Assembly: GCA_964363945.1 (NCBI GenBank)
Contig: CAYIKF010000004.1
Span: forward strand, 1 to 32,432
Direction of reading: 5' to 3'
Source: an uncultured Gammaproteobacteria bacterium
Lineage (GTDB): Bacteria; Patescibacteriota; Microgenomatia; UBA8517; JACQJR01
Length of the DNA: 32,432 bases
The number at the start of each line of letters is the position of its first letter. The stretch's first letter is position 1. This document shows, piece by piece, positions 1 through 32,389 of the stretch. The position numbers and the translations under genes were made by a program. Under the pieces are notes generated by a model. That model did not search any database. It was not told the DNA's origin and was given only the letters and a program-made list of their open reading frames with translations.

Positions 1-2444
1 CTCCACGTAGGAAGCCAATAGTAGAAGTTGTCAAGCCAGCGGGGGACAAAAACGCCTGTCCAATGGGGGAAGAAGAAAATATAAATAATAAGTAATAAGG
101 AAAAAGTAATAAGTATGAAATCCTTTTTCTGGGTTGAGAGATACCAGCCGATGGCCAGCGAGAGGAAGGGAACTGCTGGCAAATAGTGGTAAAGGAACAT
201 AACGCGGGGAGAGAGTGCCCAGGGCAAGAAAAGGAGCCCCCAAGCCGCAACGACAGCCAAAAGCGGGTAGATACGCGCACGTATTCCTGCTACTGCGGCG
301 ATAGCCATTGTCACAATACCACCCCAGAACACAAACGGATTGCCCACTGCAAAAATGTTGGATACAAACCCGTCTTTCCCTTCCGCGAAGAACCACACAG
401 GGCGCAAGCTTAGCGGCCATGTCCACCAAGAAGATTGATACGCATGTGAAGCTTGGAGATTCGTGTGATACCACCACATCTGTTTCTGAAGCTCAATAAA
501 TTGGGACACTGAATGACCGCCTAAAAAGAACGGGATGTAGGAGGCAAGGTAAAGAGCAGGAGGAATTACTGCAAACCATACGATACGCCAGCGTGGCTTT
601 TGCTTAAAAAGGAGCATGAGAACAAACAAGAGAGGTACTACCCACACTGTGGTCCACTTTGATGCTGCAGCAAGTCCCAAAAAAACACTTGAGAAGAAAT
701 AGCGCTCTTTCAGAAAGAATAGTACCGAAAGGAGCGCAAAAAACAAAAAGTAGGTATCGTTCATGCCCACCCTAGACATCACAAGCGGTAAGCCATCAAG
801 CGCAAAGACGGCAGCAGCGAGGAGCCCTACCGTCTTGTTTCGAAATAATTGCACTCCCAGAAGATATACCAAAAAGATCACTCCTACCCCCAACAGTGCA
901 CCGGGCAATCGCCAGCCAAGAGGTCGCTCACCCAGGATAACCATACCCGCCACCATTCCCAGTTTGGCAAGCGGTGGATGGGTCCACTCATACGCAAAGC
1001 CCTTTGGGGGTGTATTCCACCATTCCCACGCAGCATTGTTACCTTGTAACATTTCTTTGGCTGTGAAGGCATGGTAAACCTCATCAAAATAAAAAGTTGG
1101 TGGGAACCAAAGGCCTGCAAGGCGAGACAAAAGTGCAAAGCCAAGAACACCTGCCAGCAAGGGTCTTATCAGTTTATCAGGTATCAGTTTTCGGGTGCCA
1201 GGTATCAGGTTTCGGTTATCAGTTGCCAGTAATTTTCGTTTTAAATAATTGAAAATTGAATGAAAATTTAAAATTGAAAATTGAAAATTCTTTGGTCGGA
1301 GAAAAACCACAACCATTAAACCTGCGGCAATCAAATTTATTACAACAAAAACATCTATTATTCCTTGAGAAAATATTTGGCGAAAACCTTCAGTTATCCA
1401 AACATATGAGTAGCGCAAGTTTGCAAGGTAGGTAGCGGAAAGTATGGCATAGGGCAACCACAGAAGTGGAAACTGGGCAGCCGCTATGGCGAGCGGGGCG
1501 AACGTGGGGAGAAGATGCCGTTCATGCATACGGGTTAAGAACAAAAATGAGACAACAAACCACAACGCAGTAACCAGCCATATGGTAGTCTTACTCTTCT
1601 CTTGCCGAACCCACCAGTATCGCAGGAGCAATGATAATACCGTTACCGCGACCACAATACCTCCTATTTGCAACCCCCCTCCATCCGGTTTCCACAATCC
1701 AGTGATGAGTGCCCAGAAGTTGAACGCATTAATACTACTATAGGGATACTGATTCGCAGTCGCACCTAGCCTTTCCACCACAAACGAGATGAATTCTCCG
1801 ATTCGGAGGATGAAAGGTACACCATGCGCAAATGGGACAAATCCGCCAAGAAAGATAAGTAGCGAGAAAATCGCGTAGCCTATCGTCTTTTTCAATCCAT
1901 AAGTCTTCCACAACAAAACTGCCACAATCGGTGCAATAAATCCTGCTTGGGGTTTGACGAGTGCGCCAGCGCCCAACGCAGCGGCGGAAAGGAGTGGAAG
2001 ATGCTTCGCAAAAAAGATGGAACTCAGTGCAAGAAATACTGTTATTCCATCAATTTGTCCCCACAAGGTTGAATTTGCAAAAACTGCGGGATTAAAAAGG
2101 TAAAGGGCGGCTGCAGGTAGAGCTAACTTCTTATTAAATCGGGAAACGGCAAAAAAGATAAGCGCACCTGTGGCTACATCAGCAAGGATTGCGGGAAGTT
2201 TGTAGAGCAACGTATCTGGTAGTGCTGGTAAGATGGTATTCACTTGACCCAAAAGCCAAAGAACATAAAGATACCCTGGCAGATAATCAGACCACCCATT
2301 GTAAAAATTACCAAGTCCATCCCTTACCAGTTGCTGACTCCACGCAACAAAAGTATTAAAATCAAGGGAAAGTGTACCGGTAGAAGAAAGAAAAAGCCGC
2401 AAAAGAAAACCAATAAGAAAAATAAAAACTATTATGCGTTTCAT
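1..2444 (-). CDS. Large two-module GT-C membrane glycosyltransferase (N-terminal GT-C module fused to a protein O-mannosyltransferase-like PMT module); 3'-partial, >=814 aa
   Basis: Absent from the ORF track because no stop falls inside the window. Manual translation from ATG at 2444 gives MKRIIVFIFLIGFFLRLF..DFNTFVAW..DYLPGYLY..NSTLWGQID..KPQ..FLTRMHERHL, a linker, then FYFDEVYHAF..EWTHPPLAK..WWYHTNLQASHAYQSSWWTWPLSLRPVWF..MFLYHYLP..YYWLPTW. The frame is the same at the start, at 1080-1320 and at the window edge. It was spot-checked, not read codon by codon. Confidence 0.88.
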   Translation of the reverse strand, partial: MKRIIVFIFLIGFLLRLFLSSTGTLSLDFNTFVAWSQQLVRDGLGNFYNGWSDYLPGYLYVLWLLGQVNTILPALPDTLLYKLPAILADVATGALIFFAVSRFNKKLALPAAALYLFNPAVFANSTLWGQIDGITVFLALSSIFFAKHLPLLSAAALGAGALVKPQAGFIAPIVAVLLWKTYGLKKTIGYAIFSLLIFLGGFVPFAHGVPFILRIGEFISFVVERLGATANQYPYSSINAFNFWALITGLWKPDGGGLQIGGIVVAVTVLSLLLRYWWVRQEKSKTTIWLVTALWFVVSFLFLTRMHERHLLPTFAPLAIAAAQFPLLWLPYAILSATYLANLRYSYVWITEGFRQIFSQGIIDVFVVINLIAAGLMVVVFLRPKNFQFSILNFHSIFNYLKRKLLATDNRNLIPGTRKLIPDKLIRPLLAGVLGFALLSRLAGLWFPPTFYFDEVYHAFTAKEMLQGNNAAWEWWNTPPKGFAYEWTHPPLAKLGMVAGMVILGERPLGWRLPGALLGVGVIFLVYLLGVQLFRNKTVGLLAAAVFALDGLPLVMSRVGMNDTYFLFFALLSVLFFLKERYFFSSVFLGLAAASKWTTVWVVPLLFVLMLLFKQKPRWRIVWFAVIPPALYLASYIPFFLGGHSVSQFIELQKQMWWYHTNLQASHAYQSSWWTWPLSLRPVWFFAEGKDGFVSNIFAVGNPFVFWGGIVTMAIAAVAGIRARIYPLLAVVAAWGLLFLPWALSPRVMFLYHYLPAVPFLSLAIGWYLSTQKKDFILITFSLLLIIYIFFFPHWTGVFVPRWLDNFYYWLPTW
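1174..1229. repeat. Degenerate heptamer tandem array (8 units, consensus KTATCAG) in the GT-C linker
   Basis: ttatcag gtatcag ttttcgg gtgccag gtatcag gtttcgg ttatcag ttgccag; read on the minus strand within LATDNRNLIPGTRKLIPDKL. Confidence 0.85.
1251..1291. repeat. GAAAATT heptamer array in the GT-C linker
   Basis: gaaaatt gaat gaaaatt taaaatt gaaaatt gaaaatt ct; 1259-1291 is identical to 7152-7184. Confidence 0.92.
1788..1814. repeat. Mini-hairpin with a 6-bp flanking direct repeat (21-nt in-frame insertion candidate)
   Basis: GATGAA-ttCTCCG att CGGAG-GATGAA; protein GVP-FI-LRIGE-FI-SF. Confidence 0.65.
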
Positions 2445-3543
2445 TCGTTCTAGTCTATTTCAACTCACCTTGTTTATTATTCTAATAAGAATTGCACTAC
2501 TAGTATTACCCTGGATTTTTACAATTCTCGTCTTCCCAGAAAAATCTAATCTGCCATTTTATCAGTTTATTGAAAACTCATGGATTGCCTGGGATGGGCG
2601 AATCTATCTTTATATTGCACAAAACGGTTATACGAATGTCGGCGATCCAGGTAATTTTATCGTATTTTACCCGTTTTATCCCCTCATGGCAAAACTAGGC
2701 TTACTACTTTTCAATAATCCAGTTTGGGTGGGAATTATCATCTCATTATTATTTTATATTGCAGCCATTTTCATCTTTTACCGCCTAATAAAATTTGATT
2801 TTTCAGAGAATGTAGCACGGTGGTCTCTTATCATGCTCTCTATTTTCCCAACAGCATATTTCTTTGGAGCACCATATACAGAATCCTTGTTCTTTTTGAC
2901 CGCTGTTCTAACCTTTTACTTTGCAAGAAGAGAAAATTGGTTATCGGCAGGCATTTGTTCAGGTTTGGCAACGTTCACTCGTCCATTTGGGGTACTGCTT
3001 GTTCCCTCACTCATTATTGAGTGGATATATACGAAAAAGAGAAAAGTCTTACACCTCGTCTTTTTGGTGATGCCATCTGTAGTGTCGGTTTTAATATACC
3101 TTTACATCAATCAGCTTGTCTATGACAACCCTCTTGCATTCCAAAAAATCCTTGAAAGTCATTGGCAAAAACAACTTGCTTTACCACTCACAGGGATATT
3201 GAGCTCTTGGCAAAGAGCGTTATTTGGCGAATTAAACAATTACACGCTTATGGTGGGGTGGGCGGAGGCAGTCTCTCTCACGGTTGCCTGGGCATTACTC
3301 CCAGTTGCTTTTGTAAAACTACGACGTTCTTGGGCTGTCTACTATTTTTTAAGTATTCTTTTGTTCTCTTCAACAACCTTTATTTTAAGTACTCCAAGAT
3401 ACCTTCTCTCAATACCACCATTTTTCGTACTTTTGGGAATAGCAGCACAAAATAACTTCTTTAGATCAGCCTGGGGATTTATATCAATAGTGCTTCTTTC
3501 TTACTTGACGCTCCTATATGTTCGGGGACAGTGGGCATTTTGA
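2434..3543 (+). CDS. GT-C membrane mannosyltransferase-like protein (PIG-V/Mannosyl_trans2-like)
   Basis: 369-aa polytopic membrane protein; motifs WDG..YLYIAQNGY, FYPFYP, YTESLF, PRY. Confidence 0.85.
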   Translation: MRFIRSSLFQLTLFIILIRIALLVLPWIFTILVFPEKSNLPFYQFIENSWIAWDGRIYLYIAQNGYTNVGDPGNFIVFYPFYPLMAKLGLLLFNNPVWVGIIISLLFYIAAIFIFYRLIKFDFSENVARWSLIMLSIFPTAYFFGAPYTESLFFLTAVLTFYFARRENWLSAGICSGLATFTRPFGVLLVPSLIIEWIYTKKRKVLHLVFLVMPSVVSVLIYLYINQLVYDNPLAFQKILESHWQKQLALPLTGILSSWQRALFGELNNYTLMVGWAEAVSLTVAWALLPVAFVKLRRSWAVYYFLSILLFSSTTFILSTPRYLLSIPPFFVLLGIAAQNNFFRSAWGFISIVLLSYLTLLYVRGQWAF

Positions 3544-3544
3544 G

Positions 3545-4645
3545 TTACCGCAATAACCCTTTTACCCAATCCCTTACCTCTCCCCATGTTCCGTCGCGGG
3601 GAGTGAGAACCCACTGGTTATCATACAGAGGAGAAATAGGAGGATGCACAAGAAAACCGGTTTGTGCATCACCCACTGCTCCACCGTCCAGAACCACACT
3701 TTTAATCTTCTCTTTATCAAGCCGTAGCATCATACGTGCGAGAATGGGGAGGTCATCCTCGGGTATGTCAGTTTCCACAGAACTCACGACCGTATCCCAT
3801 ACTTTTTTCAGTTTGCGAGGATTAAGCAAAATCTTCGGGGAAAGCAGTTTTTGTTTTATACTCAGGAGAACCTTTTGCTGCCTGCTACTCCTTGCAAAGT
3901 CAGTTCCTTCCTCACCTTCTGCGTTTCGGGAACGCACAAACTTGAGCGCTGTTTGTCCGTCCATAATTTGTTTGCCCTTCTCAAAGTGCACATGTTCATA
4001 CCGGCAGCGAAACTCTGGATCTCCGCCGCACTCATCAGTTTCTCGACCAGGAATAGGATACTTATTATCATCAAAGGTGCGCTCGACCTCAACTTCAGCA
4101 CCACCCAGCAGATCAACCAACTGCACAAATCCAGAAAAATCGACTGCTGCCCCGTAATGGACCGGTTGATCAATAATTTCGGTAACTGAAGCTTTTGCTA
4201 AAATCACTCCTCCGCCTTCTCTTTTTTGGTTGCCGTAGTAATAGGCAGTATTTAACTTCGCACGTAGTGATGAAATCCAAATATCTCGAGGCAAAGAAAG
4301 AAAGACTGGATTGCTACCCTTATGGTCCAAAGAGACAAATATCATGGTGTCGGTCAATTCTGGTGCTTCATGCCCTGCGCCACCAACTCCCAATAACAAG
4401 ATACTTGTGCGGCCACCCTGACTCTCAAGCATCGAGGGTGAACCAAAAAGAAAGAGTGTTGCCATCTTTGGGAGGAAGAACACGCGCACGCCAATATTAC
4501 CGAGTGGCTCCCTGAGAAGAACAAAGAGAGCTGCCAACAAAAGGAGTGCCCCGCCCACAAACACTACCCGTGCCAGCAGGACGTGTGAGAGAAGTTTTCG
4601 TTTTATTCGAGAAATAAGGCGAGAAAATGAGGTATAATTAACCAC
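3545..4645 (-). CDS. LytR-CpsA-Psr (LCP) family glycopolymer transferase
   Basis: N-terminal TM; LTDTMIF, SLPRDIW, KLNTAY, FVRSR, DFARSSRQQ motifs; GTG start with AAGGAG upstream (4654-4659, minus strand). Confidence 0.93.
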   Translation of the reverse strand: MVNYTSFSRLISRIKRKLLSHVLLARVVFVGGALLLLAALFVLLREPLGNIGVRVFFLPKMATLFLFGSPSMLESQGGRTSILLLGVGGAGHEAPELTDTMIFVSLDHKGSNPVFLSLPRDIWISSLRAKLNTAYYYGNQKREGGGVILAKASVTEIIDQPVHYGAAVDFSGFVQLVDLLGGAEVEVERTFDDNKYPIPGRETDECGGDPEFRCRYEHVHFEKGKQIMDGQTALKFVRSRNAEGEEGTDFARSSRQQKVLLSIKQKLLSPKILLNPRKLKKVWDTVVSSVETDIPEDDLPILARMMLRLDKEKIKSVVLDGGAVGDAQTGFLVHPPISPLYDNQWVLTPRDGTWGEVRDWVKGLLR

Positions 4646-4665
4646 GAAAGATACTCCTTTTGTTC

Positions 4666-6597
4666 ATGAGTACTATTGTAACGAATTTAAATCCCCGCCA
4701 ACAAGAGGCGGTCACTTTTTTTGGGGGACCATTACTTATCTTAGCAGGCGCGGGAAGCGGCAAAACACGCGTCCTCACCCACCGTGCAGCCTGGTTAATC
4801 AAAGAAAAAGGTATTCCTTCTGAAAATCTTATCTTGGTAACCTTCACCAATAAAGCAGCAGGCGAGATGAGAGAAAGAATAAAAAAATTACTAACCACTA
4901 ATCACCCCGCCGAAGGCGAGGCTCGCCAAGGGCGGCAATCACTAATCACTCCTCCCCTTGCCTGCACTTTCCATTCCTTTTGTGCACGAGTACTACGCTC
5001 TTATGGCGAGAATATCAGCGTCCCGCGTCACTTTGTCATTTATGATGAAAATGACCAGCAAGAGGCAATAAAAGAGGTACTCACAAAGCTCGGTATGGGA
5101 GTGACCGCCATTAAACCCTCTTCAGTGCTTACGGTAATTTCTCAAGCAAAGAATGAAATGGTAACTGCAGAAGAGTATGCGCAGCTTTCTCGGGGGGAAT
5201 GGCAGCGGCACGTTGCAGTGGTATATCAGGAGTATGAGAAACTGTTGCGCGAGGTGGGGGCGTGCGATTTCGATGATCTCCTGCTTTTGGTTATCAAACT
5301 CTTTGAAGAACACCCCGATATTCGTGAGCGGTATCAAAAAATTTATCAGTATGTACTTGTTGACGAATGGCAAGATACCAATCGCGCGCAATACCGCTTG
5401 ACAAAACTCCTTGCAAAAGAACACCACAATCTGACAGTGGTAGGCGATGCCGCACAAAGTATATACAGTTGGCGGGGCGCAGACTATCGAAATATCGAAT
5501 ACCTTATGCGCGACTTCCCGGACATCACCGTTATTAACCTTGAGCAAAACTACCGCTCAACCCAGACAATTCTTGATGCCGCCTTCCATGTCATATCAAA
5601 AAACAGAACCCATCCAATCCTTAAACTGTGGACAAAAAATGATAAAGGCGAAAAAATAACGCTCTACCAAGCGCATAGTGAGCTTGAGGAAGCAGCATTC
5701 GTGGTAAGCGAAATTGAAAACCTAATAACCTACTCACCTAATAGCCCAATAACCTCTTCCTATCGTGATTTCGCGGTATTGTATCGTACCAATGCCCAAT
5801 CACGCGTGCTTGAGGAAGCAATGCTGCACGCTGGTATTCCTTATGTATTAATCGGGGGAGTACGGTTTTATGAGCGCAAAGAAGTAAAGGACATGCTTGC
5901 ATACCTGCGTCTCTTGGTTAATCCAAAGGATTCTGTATCACAAAAAAGGGCCGAGAAACTAGGTAAAAATCGTCTGAAAAAATTCACAACACTACGCCAA
6001 TCATTAGATGATAACCTTACTACGCTCGAGATTCTCGACAGTGTACTTGACACCACCGGATATCTTAATCTTTACGACACGGATGACCCAGAAGATGCCG
6101 CCCGACTGGAAAATATCAAAGAGTTGCGCTCTGTTGCGGCGGAATTTCCCGATGTGTACGAATTCTTGGAACAAGTCGCCCTGGTTGAGACAGCACAGAC
6201 TAGTAAAGGAGTTATACGTGATGCGGACCACCTGCCAGCGTCTGAGCGCAGCAATGGCGGGCAGGTAACACTCATGACCGCCCATGCCGCAAAGGGACTG
6301 GAGTTTCCAATTGTTTTTATCGTTGGTTTAGAAGAAGGCCTTTTCCCCCATAGTCGGGCGTTTGAGAGAGTTGAGGAACTGGAAGAAGAGCGTCGACTTT
6401 GTTATGTGGGAATCACTCGGGCAAAACAAAAACTATTTCTTACCTTTGCTGACCGACGCTTACTTTTTGGTCAGCGAACCAGTAATATTCCTTCTCGTTT
6501 TTTATCAGATATTCCAGAGGAACTATTTGAACAACCCGTTTCTTTTACACAAACACCAACATGGTCATGGCTAGACAAAACGAGCTACGAGGATTAG
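4666..6597 (+). CDS. pcrA: ATP-dependent SF1A DNA helicase PcrA/UvrD
   Basis: LAGAGSGKT, TFTNKAA, VDEWQDTN, GDAAQSIYSWRGA, NYRS, TAHAAKGLEF, EEERRLCYVGITRA; ATG 4666 preferred over TTG 4660. Confidence 0.95.
   Translation: MSTIVTNLNPRQQEAVTFFGGPLLILAGAGSGKTRVLTHRAAWLIKEKGIPSENLILVTFTNKAAGEMRERIKKLLTTNHPAEGEARQGRQSLITPPLACTFHSFCARVLRSYGENISVPRHFVIYDENDQQEAIKEVLTKLGMGVTAIKPSSVLTVISQAKNEMVTAEEYAQLSRGEWQRHVAVVYQEYEKLLREVGACDFDDLLLLVIKLFEEHPDIRERYQKIYQYVLVDEWQDTNRAQYRLTKLLAKEHHNLTVVGDAAQSIYSWRGADYRNIEYLMRDFPDITVINLEQNYRSTQTILDAAFHVISKNRTHPILKLWTKNDKGEKITLYQAHSELEEAAFVVSEIENLITYSPNSPITSSYRDFAVLYRTNAQSRVLEEAMLHAGIPYVLIGGVRFYERKEVKDMLAYLRLLVNPKDSVSQKRAEKLGKNRLKKFTTLRQSLDDNLTTLEILDSVLDTTGYLNLYDTDDPEDAARLENIKELRSVAAEFPDVYEFLEQVALVETAQTSKGVIRDADHLPASERSNGGQVTLMTAHAAKGLEFPIVFIVGLEEGLFPHSRAFERVEELEEERRLCYVGITRAKQKLFLTFADRRLLFGQRTSNIPSRFLSDIPEELFEQPVSFTQTPTWSWLDKTSYED
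4890..4950. repeat. ACTAATC heptamer array interrupted by a 30-bp GC-rich palindromic element (4906-4935)
   Basis: actaacc actaatc ac[CCCGCCGAAGGCGAGGCTCGCCAAGGGCGG]caatc actaatc act; removing the bracket restores the 7-nt phase. Confidence 0.88.
5721..5755. repeat. Octamer tandem array (CCTAATAA-like, 4 units) in pcrA
   Basis: cctaataa cctactca cctaatag cccaataa cct; encodes NLITYSPNSPITS. Confidence 0.75.
6230..6266. repeat. CCTGCC-type palindromic insertion in pcrA
   Basis: ACCTGCC agcgtctgagcgcagcaatggcg GGCAGGT (7-bp perfect inverted repeat); encodes HLPASERSNGG just before VTLMT. Confidence 0.78.
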
Positions 6598-7577
6598 ACA
6601 AAGTCACTCACCCTTTACAATCGCGGGAGTGGGGAGAGTTTAGAGAGAAAACTGGTGTTGAAGTTGTAAGAGGTAAAGACCTGCCTGCGCAGGCAGGCTT
6701 TCAACTCACAATCCATAAAATCCCATATACCCCATGGTCAATTGGCTACCTTCCCAAAGGACCACTTCCGACAAAACAGACCATCGACGAATTAAAAAAG
6801 ATTGGAGAAGAAAATAGGTGTATTTTTATTCAGCTTGAACCCAATATAGAACGATTTAAGAATTATGATTTAAGATTTAAGAATTTAGGATTACGAACAT
6901 CAATCCGTCCACTTTTTACAAAATACAACTTCGTTATTGATTTGACAAAAAGCGAAGAAGAATTACTTGCAGCAATGCATCCGAAAACCCGATATAATAT
7001 CCGAGTTGCCCAAAAACATGGTGTAACGGTTAAAGAAAGAACAGACGACGAAGCGTTTAAAATTTACTTAAAGCTCTATTTCGAAACAACAAAACGCCAA
7101 AAATATTTCGGCCATACACCAGAGTATCATCGTTTGCTCTGGCAAACTCTAAATGAAAATTTAAAATTGAAAATTGAAAATTCTGATAGGGTTATTCCTC
7201 ATTTGCTAATCGCCTCCTACAAAGGCATTCCACTCACAGCATGGCTGCTCTTACAGTACAAGGATACCCTTTATTATCCCTATGGCGGCTCATCAGAAGA
7301 ACATAAAAACGTCATGGCAAGTAACCTTATTATGTGGGAAGCAATAAAACTTGGAAAAAAATTAGGTTGTAAAACGTTCGATCTCTGGGGCGCCCTCAGC
7401 CCAAATCCAGATCCAAAAGACCCATGGTATGGATTTCATCGATTTAAACAAGGTTATGGCGGGCGACTTGTAGAATATGTTGGAAGTTATGATCTCGTCT
7501 TAAATCCGCTTCTTTACTGGGGGTTTCATTTAATTGATAAACTGCGTTGGATAGTTTTACGCTTAAGGCCTCTCTAA
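6561..7577 (+). CDS. FemAB/FemX-family peptidoglycan bridge aminoacyltransferase
   Basis: HPLQSREWG, YLPKGP, KTRYNIRVA, YYPYGGS, FDLWG, GFHRFKQGYGG; start could be 6561 or 6567 and overlaps the pcrA 3' end. Confidence 0.9.
   Translation: MVMARQNELRGLDKVTHPLQSREWGEFREKTGVEVVRGKDLPAQAGFQLTIHKIPYTPWSIGYLPKGPLPTKQTIDELKKIGEENRCIFIQLEPNIERFKNYDLRFKNLGLRTSIRPLFTKYNFVIDLTKSEEELLAAMHPKTRYNIRVAQKHGVTVKERTDDEAFKIYLKLYFETTKRQKYFGHTPEYHRLLWQTLNENLKLKIENSDRVIPHLLIASYKGIPLTAWLLLQYKDTLYYPYGGSSEEHKNVMASNLIMWEAIKLGKKLGCKTFDLWGALSPNPDPKDPWYGFHRFKQGYGGRLVEYVGSYDLVLNPLLYWGFHLIDKLRWIVLRLRPL
6680..6697. repeat. Perfect 18-bp palindrome CCTGCCTGCGCAGGCAGG, in frame (LPAQAG)
   Basis: Self-reverse-complementary; 6677-6697 matches 8016-8036 with 1 mismatch. 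Confidence 0.93.
6853..6887. repeat. GATTTAA heptamer array (5 units) in the femAB-like gene
   Basis: gatttaa gaattat gatttaa gatttaa gaattta; encodes RFKNYDLRFKNL. Confidence 0.88.
7152..7184. repeat. GAAAATT heptamer array in the femAB-like gene
   Basis: aat gaaaatt taaaatt gaaaatt gaaaatt ct; encodes NENLKLKIENS; identical to 1259-1291. Confidence 0.92.
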
Positions 7578-7602
7578 TTCTATTTTTTATCTTACACTAT
7601 TA

Positions 7603-7639
7603 TCCGCCTTCGTCCGCCAGCTAGCGAACTTCGGCGGGA
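7603..7639. repeat. Nested GC-rich CCGCC..GGCGG hairpin between convergent genes (possible terminator)
   Basis: tCCGCC ttc[gtccgccagctagcgaac]ttc GGCGGga; the inner stem pairs on the minus strand with two G-U pairs; abuts the stop codon at 7640-7642. Confidence 0.7.
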
Positions 7640-10555
7640 TTACGGCTTGTAGCCTCCACAAAACATTTTATATTCACAATTTTGACATAAAATTGAGCCG
7701 GAGCAGGTAAAGTCACTTGTTGCGATTTCTTGGGATACTTTGAGTATCTCTTGTTTTGCAGCGTTAAGTTGCTCTTGCGTCCGTGTTGTTGTTAATTTCT
7801 TTCCTCCCTCGAAAAAATAAAGAGAAAGTGTGAGATCCTCCGGTCTTCTTGCAAACGGCTCCTCTTTTACCTCTGTGCCAGCTAGAGCATACACTGTTAA
7901 TTGTAAATCATCTGCTAATTCTTTATCGGACGGGAGTTTTGCTCCTGTTTTATAATCAATGATTTCTATGCCATTCTTAGTTTTATCCACTCTGTCAATC
8001 TTGCCGCCGATTTTCAGACCTGCCTGCGCAGGCGGGTTTTCTATACGAAACACAAAGGGATGTTCCATAAGAATTGGGACATGTCGAGGATTAAACTCAT
8101 CTTTAAAATACTCCTCAAGGTATCCATACCCTCTTTTTTTCATTAAGCTCTCATGTTGTTTGGAGGAGTAACCCTCACGAATCCAATTCCCCCCATATAA
8201 CTTCCTAAGCTCATCAAGCGTTCCCTTTTTTCGTGCTTTGACGGTGCTATAAAAATCAGCTATTGTTTTATGAAGTGTTATCCCAAAACTTTGTGCTGCT
8301 GAAGGAGTAACAGGAACTCGGACGATATATTTTAACTTGTAATGAAGCGGGCATACTTTAAATTCTTGTATTTGTGAATAGGAAAGATAGGTAACAGGAA
8401 TTCTCACTATTTTTTCTTGCTCAACTTCGTGATCGCCCTTTGCCCACTCAAGGAGTGAAAGCTGGGTAGTTGGTGATTGGTGATCAGTGATTGGTGATTG
8501 GTTAATTGCATCAGTACCCAATGCTTCAAGAACAAAGGGCGAAAGTTTTCTTTCGCGTTTTCCTTCACCGTAATAATTAGCAGCTGTTAAAAATAATCGG
8601 TCGCGTGCGCGTGTCATCCCGACATAAAAAAGTCTTCGTTCCTCCTCGATATGATAATCACCTACCGGCAAGTCTTCTTTGATTAACTCTTCAGGAATAG
8701 GAATTTGTTCTCTGCGCTCATAGGTCGGAAAACGACCGGCAACAAGATTAACTAAAAACACAATAGGAAATTCAAGGCCTTTTGAGGAGTGAACTGTTAA
8801 GATGTACACCGCGTTAAGTCTATCCCAATCAATATCAACTGCTTGCGGTGACTCTCCCAATTCCATTGAAAGCCCAATCCAATCAACGACCGCCGTAATA
8901 CTTGCGTCCTCATGTTCTGTTTCATATGTTTTAAGTTTGTCAAAAAAACGGCTAATATTCTGAGTGCGGCGTTCTTCGAGCTGACTTTCTGGTTTTGCCA
9001 ATTTAGCTAACAGTCCTGTATCCTCAAGAAAATAAAACAAAAGTTGTCCTGCAGTCTCGCGTCGGGCTGCCTTTAAGTGTCTATTGACCATTGCGATAAA
9101 TTTATCAATTGCTTCCTTTGTCTCTTTCCTAACAAAGATTTTGTTGACATCCTCACATGCCTCAAAGAGCGAAAGATTAAAACGCCTCGCATAGTTCATA
9201 ATCGCAGCCAAATCACGTGCAGGGATATCGAAATGGTCCATGGAGAGCACGCGGTAAAGTGATATTGAATCTTCAAAGTTGTATAAAACTTTAAGATAAG
9301 CAATTAAATCTTTTATTTCTTCTTGGCGGAATAACTGACCAGGACCCAAAAATTGGAAGGGAATACCGGCTCGAGAAAATGCACGAGTGAAGGCTTCTGC
9401 ATGGTTATTGGCCCGGACTAAAATAGCAAAATCAGAGAAACTCTTATCTCCTTTTTGGACCAAAGAAAGAATTGTTTTTGCCACACGATCTGCTTCGTTC
9501 TCAACTCTGTCTGTATATAAAAATTCAATCTGTTCCCCTTTTTTCTTTCGTGCAGAAACAAGTTTTTTATCAATCTTTTCTTTTACCTCAAGTCTGTCTG
9601 GATTGTTGTGTTGAACAAGTTGATATGCTCTGTCTAGAATCTCTTGGGTTGAACGATAATTCTCGGTTAGGGTAATAATCTTTGCTTTTGGAAAGTGTTT
9701 GCGAAATTGCATCACATTTGAAACCGCTGCGCCCCGAAATCTGTAAATGCTTTGGTCATCGTCTGCTACGGCTGTAATGTTCGCCCGTTTTCCCGCAAGT
9801 AAAATTGCTAACTCATTTTGAGCATAGTTTGTATCTTGGAATTCATCAACTAAAATGTATTTAAATTGTTCTTTATACCGTTTCAAAATGGCAGGACGAC
9901 GCCGAAAAAGGAGTAGTGCGTTGGTAATTAAATCACCGAAGTCCATAACTCCCTCTTTTACCTTTAACTCTGTGTATTTCTGATACGCTTTTGCCAACTC
10001 CACATACTTTTCAATTTCCTCTTTTTCATACTTTTCGCTTTTAGCTTTTCGCTTTTCGCCCACCCACTTTATGTAATCAGTGGGCGTCACATCCTCATCC
10101 TGGAGTCGAGAAAAATGCTGCAGCATTCCACCAACAAATTTTGTTGGATTGCCTAGAGGTCTAAAGTAGGAAAGCTCAAAAGAAAAAAGATTGGCTCGTA
10201 TAAGTTGTGTTGCTTCCGCTTCTGTTAAGAGGCGGTAATTCGTTGGCAATCCAATAGCAAGCGCTTCAGTACGCAAAATCCGATCGCAAAACGCATGGAA
10301 GGTTGATATCCACATTTGGGTATAGCCATAGGGGACTGCAATATCAACACGCTCCTCCATCTCACGTGCCGCCTTTTCAGTAAAGGTAAGAGCTAGAATC
10401 TCAGAGGGCAACGCTTGCTCTGTGACAATCAAATGTTTAATTCGTTCTGTTACAACCGTGGTCTTCCCCGTCCCCGCACCAGCAATAATCAACAGCGGCC
10501 CACCTTTGTAGGTCACTGCTTGTTGCTGCTCTTTATTAAGTTCAATATCATCCAT
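7640..10555 (-). CDS. UvrD-family helicase fused to a C-terminal PD-(D/E)XK (RecB/AddA/AdnAB-like) nuclease with a putative 4-Cys Fe-S site
   Basis: AGAGTGKT, VDEFQDTN, TVHSSKGLEF, EEERRLFYVGMTRA; C-terminus SYSQI..CPLHY, GKIDRVD, IIDYKTG, QLTVYA, CQNCEYKMFC. Confidence 0.93.
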   Translation of the reverse strand: MDDIELNKEQQQAVTYKGGPLLIIAGAGTGKTTVVTERIKHLIVTEQALPSEILALTFTEKAAREMEERVDIAVPYGYTQMWISTFHAFCDRILRTEALAIGLPTNYRLLTEAEATQLIRANLFSFELSYFRPLGNPTKFVGGMLQHFSRLQDEDVTPTDYIKWVGEKRKAKSEKYEKEEIEKYVELAKAYQKYTELKVKEGVMDFGDLITNALLLFRRRPAILKRYKEQFKYILVDEFQDTNYAQNELAILLAGKRANITAVADDDQSIYRFRGAAVSNVMQFRKHFPKAKIITLTENYRSTQEILDRAYQLVQHNNPDRLEVKEKIDKKLVSARKKKGEQIEFLYTDRVENEADRVAKTILSLVQKGDKSFSDFAILVRANNHAEAFTRAFSRAGIPFQFLGPGQLFRQEEIKDLIAYLKVLYNFEDSISLYRVLSMDHFDIPARDLAAIMNYARRFNLSLFEACEDVNKIFVRKETKEAIDKFIAMVNRHLKAARRETAGQLLFYFLEDTGLLAKLAKPESQLEERRTQNISRFFDKLKTYETEHEDASITAVVDWIGLSMELGESPQAVDIDWDRLNAVYILTVHSSKGLEFPIVFLVNLVAGRFPTYERREQIPIPEELIKEDLPVGDYHIEEERRLFYVGMTRARDRLFLTAANYYGEGKRERKLSPFVLEALGTDAINQSPITDHQSPTTQLSLLEWAKGDHEVEQEKIVRIPVTYLSYSQIQEFKVCPLHYKLKYIVRVPVTPSAAQSFGITLHKTIADFYSTVKARKKGTLDELRKLYGGNWIREGYSSKQHESLMKKRGYGYLEEYFKDEFNPRHVPILMEHPFVFRIENPPAQAGLKIGGKIDRVDKTKNGIEIIDYKTGAKLPSDKELADDLQLTVYALAGTEVKEEPFARRPEDLTLSLYFFEGGKKLTTTRTQEQLNAAKQEILKVSQEIATSDFTCSGSILCQNCEYKMFCGGYKP
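8019..8036. repeat. 18-bp near-perfect palindrome CCTGCCTGCGCAGGCGGG, in frame (PPAQAG on the minus strand)
   Basis: Second copy of 6680-6697; removal gives IENLKIGGKID. Confidence 0.92.
8463..8504. repeat. TTGGTGA heptamer array (6 units) in the helicase-nuclease linker
   Basis: tgggtag ttggtga ttggtga tcagtga ttggtga ttggtta; encodes NQSPITDHQSPTTQ; the reverse-complement unit TCACCAA matches the pcrA array unit. Confidence 0.9.
10031..10058. repeat. CTTTTCG heptamer array (4 units)
   Basis: cttttcg cttttag cttttcg cttttcg; encodes GEKRKAKSEK. Confidence 0.88.
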
Positions 10556-16473: not shown

Positions 16474-17772
16474 ATGCCCAATCAATTTACTGCTAGTCTT
16501 TGGGGAGATGAGGCATTTTCGGCAATTTTGGCACAAAAACCCCTTTGGGAAATTGTAACAACCTTAGTTCGCGACACATCACCTCCTGGATACTATTTTG
16601 TTGAACATTTCTGGCTGCAGGTTTTCGGAACTTCGGAAGTTGCAATCCGCAGCCTTTCCTTTGTTTTATTTTTAATAACTGTCTTTTTTGTCTACAAAAT
16701 TGGCGCCCTCGTCTGGGATAAAAAAACAGGGATTGTGGCCGCCATGCTCACATTTCTTAATCCATTCTTATTTATTTATGCTTTTGAAGGACGAATGTAC
16801 ATGATTATGACAGCAGGAGTCACTGCTTCAATGTATTTTTTCCTCACACGGAATTGGGTCTTTTATATTATCGCAACAACTATCGCTCTTTATTCTCACC
16901 ACTTTGCCATCTTTGCCGTCTTTGTCCAGGGATTATGGTTCTTAAAGGAATTGGCAATTGGAAATTGGAAATTGGTAATTCCAATGCTTAAGGCATTTTT
17001 AGTCATAGCATTGGCTTACCTCCCTTGGGTTTATCCGCTCTATTCACAGACACGCATGGTAGGAGCTGGTTTCTGGTTAGGTAAACCGAGCCTCCGAGAC
17101 GCGTGGGAACTCATTCGCAAGTTCTTAACTGAGGCCTCACCTCATAAACTTGCGACGCCTATCCTTTACCTTTTTTGGGTTACTCTTCTTTTCCGTCGTT
17201 GGGAGCGCAACAAGGAAATGACTCTATTTTTCCTCGCGTGGTTCTTGATACCCATAGCACTAACGTATCTTATATCGCAACAGTTTCAATCAATATTTTT
17301 TGACAGATACATGCTTTATACTATTCCTGGCGCGATGCTTGTCCTGGCATCCAATAGGCGACGGATATCAGAGGCACTTCTGGTCTTTGCAGTAATTCTC
17401 CTTTTTATAATTAATTGGTTCTACTTTACACATCCTACAAAACGTCCATTTCGGGAGCTTGCAACGTATGTAAAACAAACCCAAAAACCAGGCGATTTCT
17501 TAGTAAACCATAACGCTGCCGCCCACCATCTTTGGGAATCAAAGTATTACGGTATCCCAGCACCACTTTGGGTTCCTGAAGGAGAGCTTCCCTTTTATGT
17601 GGGCACCGCTTTAATGGAAAAAGAGGATACCGTTCGCACTATTCCCGACGCTACACGTATTGGCATCATTACGAGTGGCAATCTTGCAGAGATAAATCTT
17701 GTAGGCTATACTCAAAAAGAGACGAAATCGTTTGGGCCACTAACCTTTGCATGGTATGAAAAACATCCTTAA
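16474..17772 (+). CDS. GT-C glycosyltransferase (PMT_2/ArnT-like)
   Basis: SLWGDEAFS, DTSPPGYY, EVAIRSLS, EGRMY; polytopic. Confidence 0.88.
   Translation: MPNQFTASLWGDEAFSAILAQKPLWEIVTTLVRDTSPPGYYFVEHFWLQVFGTSEVAIRSLSFVLFLITVFFVYKIGALVWDKKTGIVAAMLTFLNPFLFIYAFEGRMYMIMTAGVTASMYFFLTRNWVFYIIATTIALYSHHFAIFAVFVQGLWFLKELAIGNWKLVIPMLKAFLVIALAYLPWVYPLYSQTRMVGAGFWLGKPSLRDAWELIRKFLTEASPHKLATPILYLFWVTLLFRRWERNKEMTLFFLAWFLIPIALTYLISQQFQSIFFDRYMLYTIPGAMLVLASNRRRISEALLVFAVILLFIINWFYFTHPTKRPFRELATYVKQTQKPGDFLVNHNAAAHHLWESKYYGIPAPLWVPEGELPFYVGTALMEKEDTVRTIPDATRIGIITSGNLAEINLVGYTQKETKSFGPLTFAWYEKHP
16949..16980. repeat. AATTGGN heptamer array (4.5 units)
   Basis: aattggc aattgga aattgga aattggt aatt; encodes ELAIGNWKLVI. 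Confidence 0.88.
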
Positions 17773-22545: not shown

Positions 22546-22617
22546 GGCCTGGTAGCCAAGAGGTAAGGCTGGAGTCTGCAAAACTCCTATGCGCGGGTTC
22601 GAATCCCGCCCAGGCCT
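22546..22617 (+). tRNA. tRNA-Cys (GCA); CCA not encoded
   Basis: Acceptor GGCCTGG/CCAGGCC, discriminator U; anticodon arm GGAGT-CT-GCA-AA-ACTCC; T arm GCGGG-TTCGAAT-CCCGC; upstream TGG-TACAAT (22527-22535). Confidence 0.97.
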
Positions 22618-26983: not shown

Positions 26984-27952
26984 GGGGTAGGGTAAAAGAC
27001 GTGGCTCACGGAGTTTTCGTTTTTCCGATTTTGCTCTCCTCTCGAATTCCCCAAGCACAATTCCCCCCCAGTCAATAGGATGGAAAAAGGCGCGACCTGG
27101 TTCGATAAGCTCACGAGTATGGCGATTTCGCATGTACCACTGCTGAAGGCGGTACGCTAAAGGTTCTAAAACTACTAAGAGCTTCGATGTAAGATTTAAA
27201 AAGTAAGAACCTATGCTTCGCATAGAACCTTGTTTTTCACTTTGCTTTAAATAAGATTTAAAAAAAATTTTATTCCTAAATCCTAAATCATAAATCTTAG
27301 ATCTTGGCTTCGCTGAGGGCCAATAGTTTCTTGCCCATTCATTTGCACGCAAGAACCTCTCGAACGTATTGTCTTTATTAACTAACGGTACGACCTGCAA
27401 CACCTCATGAGCGGTATAGCGAGTGTTAATAACATGTGGAATACGGAGATTCTCTTCATCCATCCACATATTAAGGCAGAGAGAGTCTTTGTGTTCACTC
27501 CCACCTACCTTGCGTAACTTTACACCGCCCAATAACGAAACTACTCTTACAAGAAGCCGAGTTATCCAGAGTGTCCCTGCTGTTGTGATAATGAAAAGGT
27601 CAATGTCGCTCTTTTTGTCGGCATTGCCCATCGCCAAACTACCTGTAATACCAATAAATCGAACCATAGGAATACGCGAAAAAACATGTGCTCCGTGCTG
27701 CGCAATCACATGCTTATTGGAAGAAACGACTTCCCTTTCCTTCCTCAAAAGCACAAGATACGCTCTGCCCACCATGTGGTAATATTCTCCTGTCTTTTCC
27801 GCAGGAAATACCCCCTCCTGGCGAGGAGTAGCCCATCGCACAAGCTCTTTCCTTGTCAGTGGATACCCAAAGACATCATGATATACCAAAGACAAAAACC
27901 AGTGCGCGGGAACGTGCACTCTCTTTGTAGTTCGTTCTCTAACGTGCCCCAT
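26972..27952 (-). CDS. Pol-beta-superfamily nucleotidyltransferase-domain protein
   Basis: ITGSLAMGNA..SDIDLFII motif; YPLT..EL, CLNMWMDE, YTAHE. Confidence 0.8.
   Translation of the reverse strand: MGHVRERTTKRVHVPAHWFLSLVYHDVFGYPLTRKELVRWATPRQEGVFPAEKTGEYYHMVGRAYLVLLRKEREVVSSNKHVIAQHGAHVFSRIPMVRFIGITGSLAMGNADKKSDIDLFIITTAGTLWITRLLVRVVSLLGGVKLRKVGGSEHKDSLCLNMWMDEENLRIPHVINTRYTAHEVLQVVPLVNKDNTFERFLRANEWARNYWPSAKPRSKIYDLGFRNKIFFKSYLKQSEKQGSMRSIGSYFLNLTSKLLVVLEPLAYRLQQWYMRNRHTRELIEPGRAFFHPIDWGGIVLGEFERRAKSEKRKLREPRLLPYPLTK
27201..27253. repeat. AGAACC-hairpin element, copy 2 (inside a CDS, in frame)
   Basis: aagtaAGAACCTatgcttcgcatAGAACCTtgtttttcactttgctttaaata; read on the minus strand as YLKQSEKQGSMRSIGSYF. 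Confidence 0.8.
27274..27305. repeat. TCCTAAA heptamer array, facing TAAGATTTAA tracts at 27190 and 27252
   Basis: tcctaaa tcctaaa tcataaa tcttaga tctt; encodes RSKIYDLGFRN. Confidence 0.85.
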
Positions 27953-31300: not shown

Positions 31301-32389
31301 ATGGTGATACTAGGTATAGAGACTAGCTGCGATGAGACTGCGGCAAGTGTTGTGGAAGACGGGCGAAAAGTTTTATCACATGTACTTGCTTCATCAGCTG
31401 ATATGCATGCAAAAACAGGAGGTATTATTCCTGAAGTTGCAGCGCGTGAACAGGTAAAAGCAATTTTACCAGTAATTAATGAAGCAATTGAAAATTGTAA
31501 ATTGAAAATTGAAAATTTAGATGCCATAGCAGTAACAGCCGGTCCAGGGTTAATTGGTTCTCTCTTAGTGGGAGTTGAAACCGCACGAACGCTCGCGTAC
31601 GTCTGGAATAAGCCAATCGTGCCTGTTAATCACCTTGTTGGACACATATACGCGAATTGGCTGGTAGCAGGTAGCACGTGGCATGTAGAAAAACCACAAG
31701 CCACAAGCTATAAACCACACGCTCCAGAATTTCCTGCTTTGGCGTTAGTAGTATCGGGCGGGCATACAGACTTAGTTTTAATGACAGCTCATGGAAAAAT
31801 GAAATGGATTGGAGGAACACGAGACGATGCGGCAGGAGAAGCATTCGACAAGACAGCACGGCTTTTAGGACTCCCCTATCCCGGAGGGCCAGCTATAGCC
31901 GCCGAAGCGGCTAAATTCGAAGCACGAAATTCGAAGCACGAAAAATTACACATGTTTCCAAGACCAATGATGGATGAGAAAAACTTTGATTGGAGTTTTT
32001 CGGGGCTCAAAACTGCGGTTCTTAGGGAAACTGAAAAACTTAAAAACAAAAAGACTAAAAAACTCTCAGGAGAAGAAATCTCTTGCTTGGCAGCAGAGAT
32101 TCAGGAAGCGATTGTTGATGTACTGGTAACAAAAACTATTCGCGCCGTCAAGAAATTTAAACCACAGTCTCTGCTACTGGGTGGGGGCGTTGCAGCCAAC
32201 CAACGGCTGTGTGAAGAATTTAAATTGAAAATTGAAAATTTAAAATTGAAAATTAACCTACATGTCCCTCCACCACTTCTTTGTACTGATAATGCCAGCT
32301 ATATTGCAGCAGCTGCATACTATAACTACAAACCTGTCGACTGGAGAAAGATAACAGTAAAACCAGAGTTAACGATTATGGGAGAATGA
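31301..32389 (+). CDS. tsaD: tRNA N6-adenosine threonylcarbamoyltransferase TsaD
   Basis: LGIETSCDET, GPGLIGSL, HLVGH, VSGGHT, DDAAGEAFDK, YPGGP, SFSGLKT, GGVAAN, CTDNA. Confidence 0.97.
   Translation: MVILGIETSCDETAASVVEDGRKVLSHVLASSADMHAKTGGIIPEVAAREQVKAILPVINEAIENCKLKIENLDAIAVTAGPGLIGSLLVGVETARTLAYVWNKPIVPVNHLVGHIYANWLVAGSTWHVEKPQATSYKPHAPEFPALALVVSGGHTDLVLMTAHGKMKWIGGTRDDAAGEAFDKTARLLGLPYPGGPAIAAEAAKFEARNSKHEKLHMFPRPMMDEKNFDWSFSGLKTAVLRETEKLKNKKTKKLSGEEISCLAAEIQEAIVDVLVTKTIRAVKKFKPQSLLLGGGVAANQRLCEEFKLKIENLKLKINLHVPPPLLCTDNASYIAAAAYYNYKPVDWRKITVKPELTIMGE
31486..31518. repeat. GAAAATT heptamer array in tsaD
   Basis: aatt gaaaatt gtaaatt gaaaatt gaaaatt t; encodes IENCKLKIENL. Confidence 0.9.
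31663..31721. repeat. Inverted pair of heptamer arrays in tsaD
   Basis: ggtagca ggtagca cgtggca tgtagaa / ccacaag ccacaag ctataaa ccacacg; encodes VAGSTWHVEKPQATSYKPH. Confidence 0.8.
31913..31940. repeat. Perfect 14-bp (7+7) tandem duplication in tsaD
   Basis: AAATTCGAAGCACG x2; encodes KFEARNSKHE. Confidence 0.9.
32028..32064. repeat. AAACTnAA octamer array in tsaD
   Basis: aaactgaa aaacttaa aaacaaaa agactaaa aaact; encodes TEKLKNKKTKKL. Confidence 0.7.
32214..32254. repeat. GAAAATT heptamer array in tsaD
   Basis: aagaatt taaatt gaaaatt gaaaatt taaaatt gaaaatt; encodes EFKLKIENLKLKI. Confidence 0.9.

Follow-up and report, generated by a model that had tools for sequence, protein, structure and literature searches.

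A heptamer tract common to a FemAB-like gene and a GT-C glycosyltransferase gene of a Microgenomates bacterium: evidence for copying as DNA

The stretch of DNA analysed here (the window, 32,432 nt) is contig C4 in the genome of an ultra-small groundwater bacterium of the Microgenomates lineage of the candidate phyla radiation, CPR (genome G000: 66 contigs, 645,885 nt, 87.7% complete). Two of its genes, one for a GT-C membrane glycosyltransferase and one for a FemAB-like protein, carry the same 33-nt tract of GAAAATT heptamers, AATGAAAATTTAAAATTGAAAATTGAAAATTCT, and in all likelihood this tract was copied as DNA, by copying of some kind. A sequence-only reading of this DNA had proposed the same; it is now supported by a variant base that looks like a fossil of the FemAB reading frame, by rare edges of the tract and by an old FemAB copy set against a young GT-C copy. 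Because the argument draws on shared irregularities and on relative age, it is stronger than one from identity alone. The features concerned are the following.

3..2444, minus strand: gene for a GT-C/PMT-type membrane glycosyltransferase, 814 aa, two domains (Pfam PMT_4TMC, PMT_2, PMT)
1259..1291, plus strand: copy A of the 33-mer, in the GT-C linker, read on the minus strand as NFQFSILNFH (about residues 386-395)
1247..1289, plus strand: GAAAATT array of the GT-C site in its full extent, 6.6 units by Tandem Repeats Finder (TRF), with an out-of-phase junction, AATTGAAAATTGA then ATGAAAATT
1269, plus strand: G-to-T variant in copy A, on the minus strand the third base of TTA (Leu), where a pure array has TTC (Phe)
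6561..7577, plus strand: FemAB-family peptidyltransferase-like gene, 338 aa (Pfam FemAB)
7152..7184, plus strand: copy B of the 33-mer, which in sense gives N198-S208 (NENLKLKIENS)
7162, plus strand: G-to-T variant in copy B, at the middle position of codon TTA (7161-7163), which with G would be TGA

A direct search bore out the identity of the two copies claimed earlier (0 mismatches over 33 nt, both on the plus strand, 5,893 bp apart), and translation returned the two peptides that had been read from them. There is no third site in the window at up to three mismatches, none of 100 dinucleotide shuffles gave any 33-mer match, and a k-mer search found the 25-nt words of the tract at only these two places in the whole 0.65-Mb assembly, both times on the plus strand and in genes of different Pfam families that are coded on opposite strands. 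The identity breaks off exactly at 33 nt (g at 1258 versus a at 7151; t at 1292 versus g at 7185), and the upstream 12 nt of the GT-C array are not common to FemAB. TRF reports 4.1-6.6 copies of period 7 at the two sites, and (GAAAATT)2 gave 12 matches at up to one mismatch versus 0.13 expected. Both copies being on one strand, and the GC skew being negative in all 1-kb windows of positions 1-8000, we read them as belonging to one replichore. Neither copy is flanked by direct or inverted repeats or by a target duplication, the tract has no secondary structure or hairpin (fold z-scores +1.0, +0.64 and -0.31), and the Rfam covariance models assign no family to it, their sole match in the window being a tRNA at 22546-22617.

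Both tracts sit in parts of their proteins that vary between relatives. The GT-C gene, open at the window end, is a single open reading frame (ORF) of about 810 aa in G000 and in two related genomes, G001 and G002, and an alignment of the three shows the linker of about 40 residues between VFLRPK and RPxLxxILGFALLSRL not to be conserved. In the FemAB-like protein the ortholog alignment places the tract in a loop after the LMWxxL motif; at the matching junction Staphylococcus aureus FmhB (6snr) has about 60 extra residues, which we take to be the coiled-coil arm of FemA. Among 30 FemAB loci (G000 and 29 other genomes of the order) this loop is short in 20 and has extra residues in ten, six of which are heptamer arrays of five unit types and four non-periodic. 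The units are GAAAATT in G000 and G001, AAAAATC/AAAAGTC in G013, CACCAAT in G026, AAAGTCA in G030 and, as a partial array, AGATAAA in G033; the GAAAATT array is absent from FemAB in G002 and 27 other genomes of the order.

The variant base is best understood from the coding properties of the repeat. Whichever frame of its own strand is read, a pure (GAAAATT)n array contains TGA, and its complementary strand is free of stops. All four GAAAATT arrays of G000 that are read in sense (FemAB, tsaD twice and C1:50234) are changed at the in-frame TGA, to TTA three times and to TGT once, whereas two of the three read in antisense are perfect (C1:3870 and C9:9738). The third is the GT-C copy, which bears the G-to-T of FemAB although on its own strand this merely turns TTC into TTA and the variant at 1269 avoids no stop. 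The G-to-T thus makes sense only in the FemAB reading frame. The same constraint is visible throughout the genome, where coding arrays with a stop in the sense unit are imperfect in 15 of 16 cases versus 25 of 41 without such a stop, and where, among arrays with a stop in one orientation only, 25 avoid that orientation and 6 do not.

How much the identity itself can carry was assessed by a scan for the pattern GAAAATT(G/T)AAAATTGAAAATTGAAAATT with one genome per species, the listed loci of which may leave out near relatives. It found at least 118 loci, in Patescibacteria, rumen Bacteroidales/Prevotella, Cyanobacteria (Microcoleus, Nostoc, Trichormus), Thermoanaerobaculia, Saprospiraceae and others; among the 118 listed the arrays measure 28-34 nt in 81 cases, 35-41 nt in 20 and more in 17. 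When the 100 listed loci that have exactly four core units are compared, perfect periodicity makes 212 of 4950 pairs identical over the same 3+28+2 nt, and since such independent pairs match too, a 33-nt identity alone is weak evidence. The two copies in the window have, in addition, three irregularities in common: an AAT left edge (2 of the 118 listed loci), the G-to-T in unit 2 (6 of 118) and a CT right edge (2 of 118). The three together, i.e. the exact form of the 33-mer, occur in none of the 118 loci listed from other genomes. Taken jointly they have a frequency of about 1.5e-5 per array, which for the seven other GAAAATT members in G000 amounts to about 1e-4, and generous upper bounds bring the figure (by arithmetic) near 3e-3.

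Comparison with G001, a sister species in the same genus (772,756 nt), shows that the two copies differ in age. The FemAB array of G001, single-copy in that genome, agrees at 32 of the 33 nt (TCC in place of TCT), while 34 of 239 positions differ in the ±120-nt flanks. At the GT-C site G001 has no array, though it holds AAAATTG-like seeds, and the linker (window 1148-1368) is unalignable between the two (221 nt versus 206 nt, net +15 nt in G000). In a 17,351-nt contig of a closer strain from another study (X4), 205 other letters replace 1148-1372 and 69 replace 7133-7209, as against only 68 other letters in the about 4,330 nt of 1372-5702. Because the array is present in the FemAB gene but missing from the GT-C site of G001, and because the GT-C site of X4 differs, the FemAB copy is old, predating the split from G001, and the GT-C copy young. 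The CT right edge of the GT-C copy corresponds to G000's own FemAB codon TCT and not to the TCC of G001; taken with the relative ages, this makes FemAB to GT-C the probable direction of copying. A simple insertion at the GT-C site was rejected, as deleting the 33 nt does not restore the G001 sequence (about 220 nt differ). When metagenome relatives were sought by way of the LytR-like neighbour, the nearest had 54% identity at most.

The assembly at the tract is sound. Read evidence comes from Logan contigs (k=31), which break at the tract and hold no single molecules across it. On the GT-C side the X1 contigs span 248-1288 and 1262-2138 with 0 other letters, variant T included, and X3 contigs add 928-1288, again with the variant-bearing tract; on the FemAB side those of X1 span 5880-7181 with one other letter and 7155-8000 with none. 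Neither tract has an indel in these read contigs, which drop rare variants as well as breaking at the tract, and the depth and loose ends seen there reflect only the same 31-mers in many other community contexts. Many contig ends of G000 overlap by 55 nt (e.g. C4:1-55 = C29:5446-5500), so that the final assembly k was evidently 55. Such overlaps, in a short-read metagenome bin and with read contigs that break just where one would wish them whole, might raise the suspicion that a collapsed or chimeric path had put the FemAB array into the GT-C gene. We consider this hardly credible: each unique flank is joined to the variant-bearing tract in k=31 contigs (the GT-C-specific bases to the variant T in both X1 and X3), the four flanks keep their order in G001 and in the X4 contig, and a repeat of 33 nt is shorter than the final k. 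The same 55-nt end overlaps indicate that the G000 assembly graph could be joined further.

The two tracts belong to a much larger population of arrays. G000 has 51 arrays of period 7, versus 0, 0, 2, 3, 0, 0 and 1 of periods 5, 6, 8, 9, 10, 11 and 12; G001 has 31 versus 0-6 of other periods; and in 28 other genomes of the order (108,797 nt) there are eight of period 7, all 29-37 nt long, and none of periods 4-6 and 8-12. At a laxer threshold G000 has 69 arrays in 39 unit families, the largest being GGAAATT (9) and GAAAATT (8), and 29 of the 69 have units that contain AATT. Most of them (57 of 69) lie well inside ORFs of at least 150 aa, with lengths of 29-36 nt in 42 of these 57.

Orthologous positions in G001 were located for 57 G000 arrays, and the turnover between the sister species is bimodal, all or none: 7 arrays are identical (0-3% mismatch), 3 differ by 3-15%, 4 by 15-30% and 43 are unrelated (>30%). 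The seven identical arrays, a set picked after the fact, have 1 mismatch in 216 nt versus 278 in 1604 nt of their flanks. In G001 a strict test finds another period-7 array at eight of the 43 unrelated sites, and inspection by eye adds to that number; arrays of other units at the same site, often of equal length, are found for example at C2:27488, C15:5729 and C52:2229. Length differences of exactly three units of the same unit were seen at two of the 57 sites (C1:43945 and C14:3582), and single-unit differences at none of them. One further site is peculiar: at C40:1929-1961, as compared with G001 C3:91660-91718, equal in length, G001 has AATT(GAAAATT)4 and G000 approximately its reverse complement with C/G changes, which looks like an inversion in place or an overwrite by an inverted copy.

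The tsaD gene of the window offers a view of the same process within a normally essential protein. The near copies reported there by the sequence-only reading do exist, as two arrays.

31486..31517, plus strand: tsaD site 1, GAAAATT array, residues 62-74, AIENCKLKIENLD, with TGA changed to TGT; identical in G001
32219..32254, plus strand: tsaD site 2, GAAAATT array, residues 305-321, with TGA changed to TTA; identical in G001

Site 2 has a 32-nt twin at C1:50234. Across the order 9 of 30 loci at site 1 and 7 of 28 at site 2 have a lag-7 identity of at least 0.8, with units that vary by lineage (GAAAATT, AATTAAC, GAGTCAC, GTAAATA, TTGCAAA, GATACAA, GGAAATT and others), and over all 669 windows of tsaD lag 7 reaches this level in 19 and other lags in 3-4. 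A member of another family, G011, also has the site-1 GAAAATT array with TGT. Because the periodic segments are mostly as long as those of the non-periodic orthologues (39 nt and 51 nt), the arrays occupy existing codons of tsaD and do not only insert.

Copying of an array together with its flank is general in this genus, and at least two other pairs in unrelated genes are found in G000. One joins C1:14576 and the reverse complement of C1:30217 (40 nt in common, GCGAG, four AATTTCC and AATTTTT, in ORFs without BLASTP similarity), the other C7:21212 and the reverse complement of C9:8831 (34 nt in common, a variant unit and a GAA edge among them, the ORFs being unrelated). A 38-nt stretch is likewise common to two G000 paralogues of the GT-C type with 36% aa identity. 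In G001 a non-coding AGAAATT-type array with one variant unit occurs in three copies (C2:113123, C4:74616 in reverse and C3:14606), of which two, in opposite orientation, have 49 nt in common, 15 nt of non-periodic flank included, with unrelated DNA beyond, and the third shares 34 nt.

As for the machinery, RecA is present in all three of G000, G001 and G002, and the mismatch repair domain MutS_V (PF00488) was found in none of them (88, 96 and 97% complete); a missing mismatch repair may lie behind both the instability of the arrays and conversion over short homology. Reverse transcriptase (RVT_1) was likewise found in none of the three genomes (88-97% complete), and templating by a retroelement of the diversity-generating or other reverse-transcribing kind was rejected on this ground.

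A small element of another kind interrupts the uvrD/PcrA-like ORF (4660..6597, plus strand): a 30-nt GC-rich hairpin, CCCGCC...GGCGG, at 4912-4941 (-10.7 kcal/mol, z -2.7), in frame between the TFTNKAAGEM and TFHSF motifs and inside a heptamer array (ACTAATCAC before it, CAATCACTAATCACT after). G001 uvrD is without exactly those 30 nt, and its flanks are nearly identical. The hairpin with AATCAC flanks also occurs at C3:13464 and C3:23409 and, at a non-orthologous place, at G001 C5:32812; it has the look of a tiny mobile element directed at heptamer arrays.

All three genomes have Y1_Tnp (IS200/RAYT-like) ORFs of about 220-230 aa (G000 C11:18289-18981; G001 C7:1150-1386 and C7:51335-51586; G002 C1). 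Those of G001 have short hairpins, CACCTnnAAGGTG, on either side, which differ from the uvrD one. Mobilisation of the tract after the manner of repetitive extragenic palindromes (REP) and their associated tyrosine transposases (RAYT) was rejected, the tract having no hairpin and the Y1_Tnp genes being flanked by different ones. A transposon or miniature inverted-repeat transposable element (MITE) was rejected as well, since the tract lacks terminal inverted repeats, a target duplication and a fold, and the hairpins around Y1_Tnp are unrelated. Genes for the four-helix-bundle 'intervening sequence' protein (23S_rRNA_IVP) exist in several copies in these genomes of 0.8 Mb, with one match in G000 (C1:868-1182), ten in G001 and seven in G002; a link with the arrays was not supported, an array lying within 400 nt of 3 of 10 such genes versus about 1 expected.

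The full explanation that we favour, and consider probable, is that the tract passed recently from FemAB to GT-C, through ectopic conversion or a template switch, as one event within this genome-wide class of arrays. Both 33-mers are members of a class of heptanucleotide arrays of about 32 nt, canonically AATT(GAAAATT)4, that lie in frame in tolerant loops and linkers. The FemAB array came first, before the split of the sister species, and selection would have fixed the G-to-T that turns TGA into TTA. Later, in the G000 lineage only, the FemAB array with 2-3 nt on each side would have been copied non-reciprocally onto a GAAAATT array of the GT-C gene, leaving a remnant of the recipient array, AATTGAAAATTGA at 1247-1259, just upstream and out of phase. 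Most likely two such arrays, short and homologous, underwent short-patch ectopic gene conversion or a replication template switch, which a genome with RecA and apparently without MutS-dependent mismatch repair would favour. The GT-C copy would have survived because all three reverse-strand frames are open and the linker tolerates any sequence. The identity, the part that the variant plays in FemAB and not in GT-C, the unequal ages of the two copies and the further copies of arrays with flanks in the genus are observed facts; which way the copy went, its enzymology and a target array present beforehand are inferred.

Ectopic short-patch conversion (RecA-dependent) and the template-switch models of Ripley and Lovett provide for non-reciprocal transfer of short stretches, and a rise of such events is expected without mismatch repair. 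The hallmarks of conversion are found here: an identical stretch in non-homologous flanks, an older donor and a variant that is sensible only in the donor. The case resembles the known process in that a short stretch with a private variant would have moved between similar sequences on one chromosome. It differs in that the homology amounts to only about 31 nt of low complexity in unrelated genes, the patch exceeds the homology on both sides, and the other pairs are inverted.

Several observations weigh against this explanation. Donor bases extend past the homology at either end, which a simple one-ended template switch does not predict, and as the whole GT-C linker is unalignable with G001, the history of the site is more complex than a single patch. 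The edge frequencies come from small counts (2/118), and the absence of MutS from a single Pfam model in genomes that are 88-97% complete. Among the listed arrays 32 of 6328 pairs share at least 30 nt including at least five non-periodic positions; flanks are thus non-random between species, and chance together with a common 'grammar' of arrays is not negligible. The earlier caution that low complexity raises the chance expectation was therefore right in kind and understated in degree, both by these pairs and by the 212 of 4950 given above. Recurring flanks among the listed loci include TTT and degenerate extra units, some of these loci being probably orthologous. About ten listed arrays have a perfect four-unit block after an out-of-phase 3-4-nt TTG(A/T)TT junction, which hints at block-wise addition and not at conversion.

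The main rival to conversion or template switching takes the arrays to be small mobile or 'written' cassettes of about 31-40 nt, inserted or overwritten in either orientation by a dedicated activity and not by conversion through homology; they would resemble the small dispersed repeats of cyanobacteria, and the two 33-mers would represent one transposition of this sort. It would account for the sharply peaked lengths (42 of 57 coding arrays at 29-36 nt, all eight from the 28 other genomes at 29-37 nt), for copies that lie in either orientation and carry a few non-periodic bases at each end, for sister-species sites with different units at the same length, one of them inverted (C40:1929), for tsaD arrays that fill existing codons at unchanged length, and for the recurrence of the perfect four-unit block after an out-of-phase junction. 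The true 30-nt hairpin insertion in the uvrD heptamer array means that small elements do move here, and Y1-transposase-like genes (3/3 genomes) and 23S_rRNA_IVP matches (1, 10 and 7) are present. On the other hand, the tract has neither terminal inverted repeats nor target duplication nor secondary structure, no single template explains 39 unit families in 69 arrays, no reverse transcriptase was found in three genomes, arrays lie within 400 nt of only 3 of 10 IVP genes, the Y1 genes are flanked by other hairpins, and the exact three-unit differences at C1:43945 and C14:3582 are those that slippage predicts. We regard a cassette activity as unlikely.

Two other explanations dispense with recent copying altogether. 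The arrays might have originated independently by local heptamer slippage or in-place homogenisation, the irregularities arising from chance or from a common array grammar; this has on its side the pair counts among the loci listed (212/4950 and 32/6328), the T variant in 6 of the 118 listed loci (one of them, L057, probably read in antisense), the AAAATTG-like seeds at the G001 GT-C site, and the repeated rise of arrays at the same loops of FemAB and tsaD. What makes it improbable is the joint frequency of the irregularities (about 1.5e-5 per array and 1e-4 for the seven other family members), a variant that has no selective reason on the GT-C strand, and a CT edge that equals the TCT of FemAB in G000 and not the TCC in G001. 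Alternatively, the identity could be held by selection on a function at the DNA or RNA level, e.g. a binding site for a regulator; binding of a regulator has been proposed for TAACTGA repeats, in a passage of MacGregor 2015 (PMC4679880). Seven arrays identical between G000 and G001 (1/216 versus 278/1604, at sites picked after the fact) and the tsaD site-1 array with TGT kept by G011 of another family could be so explained. Given the loss or replacement of arrays at 43 of 57 orthologous sites, the 39 unit families, the absence of the GT-C copy from close relatives and a tract without structure or Rfam family, we hold this explanation to be most improbable.

A wider reading, which we put forward tentatively and consider rather doubtful, is that these arrays are not ordinary microsatellites and reflect an unrecognised block-wise writing or copy-paste of patches of about 30 nt in CPR bacteria, Cyanobacteria and Bacteroidota. 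Such an activity might overwrite genes, essential ones like tsaD and uvrD among them, either with 4.6 copies of some 7-nt word or with the copy of a different array; orientation would be free and the length would often stay the same. Were it so, the 33-mer pair, whose 'fossil' base avoids a stop on one strand and is read on the wrong one, could be a case caught in the act, and the uvrD hairpin would be another outcome of that machinery.

Heptanucleotide units form the most frequent long simple sequence repeats (LSSR) of most bacterial genomes (Mrazek, Guo and Shah 2007, as reported in passages of PMC4679880 and PMC4692102), and a 7-nt polymerase contact, or slippage with a 7-nt step, has been proposed as the cause (Mrazek 2007, from the same passages). 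The arrays described here are like them in their head-to-tail 7-nt units, in the large excess of period 7 (51 versus 0-3) and in being lineage-wide. They differ in lying mostly in genes (57/69), whereas units that are not multiples of three would be expected outside genes, in lengths peaked at about 4.6 units and not graded, in their all-or-none turnover, and in occupying codons without length change and being copied between loci with flanks.

The TAACTGA repeats of Beggiatoaceae, Cyanobacteria and Bacteroidetes are described, in the portions of PMC4679880 that deal with them, as mostly intergenic, in 2-6 copies just upstream of start codons; in forward orientation they have stops in all frames, and in-gene copies are reversed or at gene ends. 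In common with ours they are dispersed heptamer arrays of similar phyletic spread (Cyanobacteria, Bacteroidota and others), and G000 has TAACTGA-type arrays too. Theirs, however, are of one unit type, while here there are 39 families, mostly in frame, whose sense copies are repaired at the in-frame stop. In Nostocales, Elhai et al. in 2008 reportedly described very small (20-30 nt) dispersed repeats (small dispersed repeats, SDR) in genes and in short tandemly repeated repetitive (STRR) heptamers, with no transposase of their own; the SDR families inserted in STRR heptamers reportedly measure 21-27 nt. The 30-nt hairpin in the uvrD heptamer array would fit that picture; the 33-mer differs in being an array itself and not a hairpin element. 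Phase-variable contingency loci of Haemophilus and Neisseria are simple repeats in coding regions, many of them in genes for surface glycosylation. They resemble the present arrays in having in-gene units that are not multiples of three; here, by contrast, the tsaD and FemAB arrays are of the same length in G000 and G001, the differences come in three-unit steps, and the cases seen show no on/off switching.

The passages of Rehm 2015 (PMC4692102) that touch on the subject state that no detailed literature on heptanucleotide repeats was available. Among the publications listed by our literature search none joins CPR/Patescibacteria with heptamer repeats, and the search for SDR/STRR found nothing on CPR. 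The event described here is small in itself; its value is that of a marker, a directional one for copying at the DNA level by virtue of a base sensible only in the donor frame, within a poorly understood and lineage-wide turnover of in-gene 7-nt arrays that recur at the same protein loops with different units. If the process is driven by homology, low-complexity homologies of 30 nt can reshape proteins where no mismatch repair gene is found; if it is due to a dedicated activity, this would amount to mobile DNA of a novel and very small sort. In both cases there are consequences for annotation and for how proteins evolve in ultra-small bacteria.

Other arrays of the window are listed here for completeness.

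1166..1229, plus strand: degenerate second heptamer array in the GT-C linker, TATCAGG/TATCAGT, the reverse complement of TAACTGA-type units
10031..10059, plus strand: array of CTTTTCG units in an AddA-like helicase-nuclease ORF; AATTTCG units at the same site of G001
16947..16980, plus strand: array of the GGAAATT family in a PMT_2 glycosyltransferase ORF; no array there in G001
27274..27305, plus strand: in-gene array TAAATCC/TAAATCA/TAAATCT; 23 nt, with the same order of variant units, common to G000 C38:4171

TAACTGA-type heptamers occur elsewhere in G000 as well, with five perfect reverse units at C19:4424-4459. Other dispersed repeats of this genome are GCCTGCCTGCGCAGGCAGGC palindromes flanked by heptamers, repeats of the AAGCAGAGCTTGTTTCTCAC type and a unit of about 100 nt at C2:24988. 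The X4 strain has other letters over the remainder of the region also (83 in 1-1148, 14 in 5782-6841, 30 in 6912-7133 and 72 in 7209-8000), and its sequence is a mosaic when set against the window, with both array regions replaced, which points to recombination between lineages.

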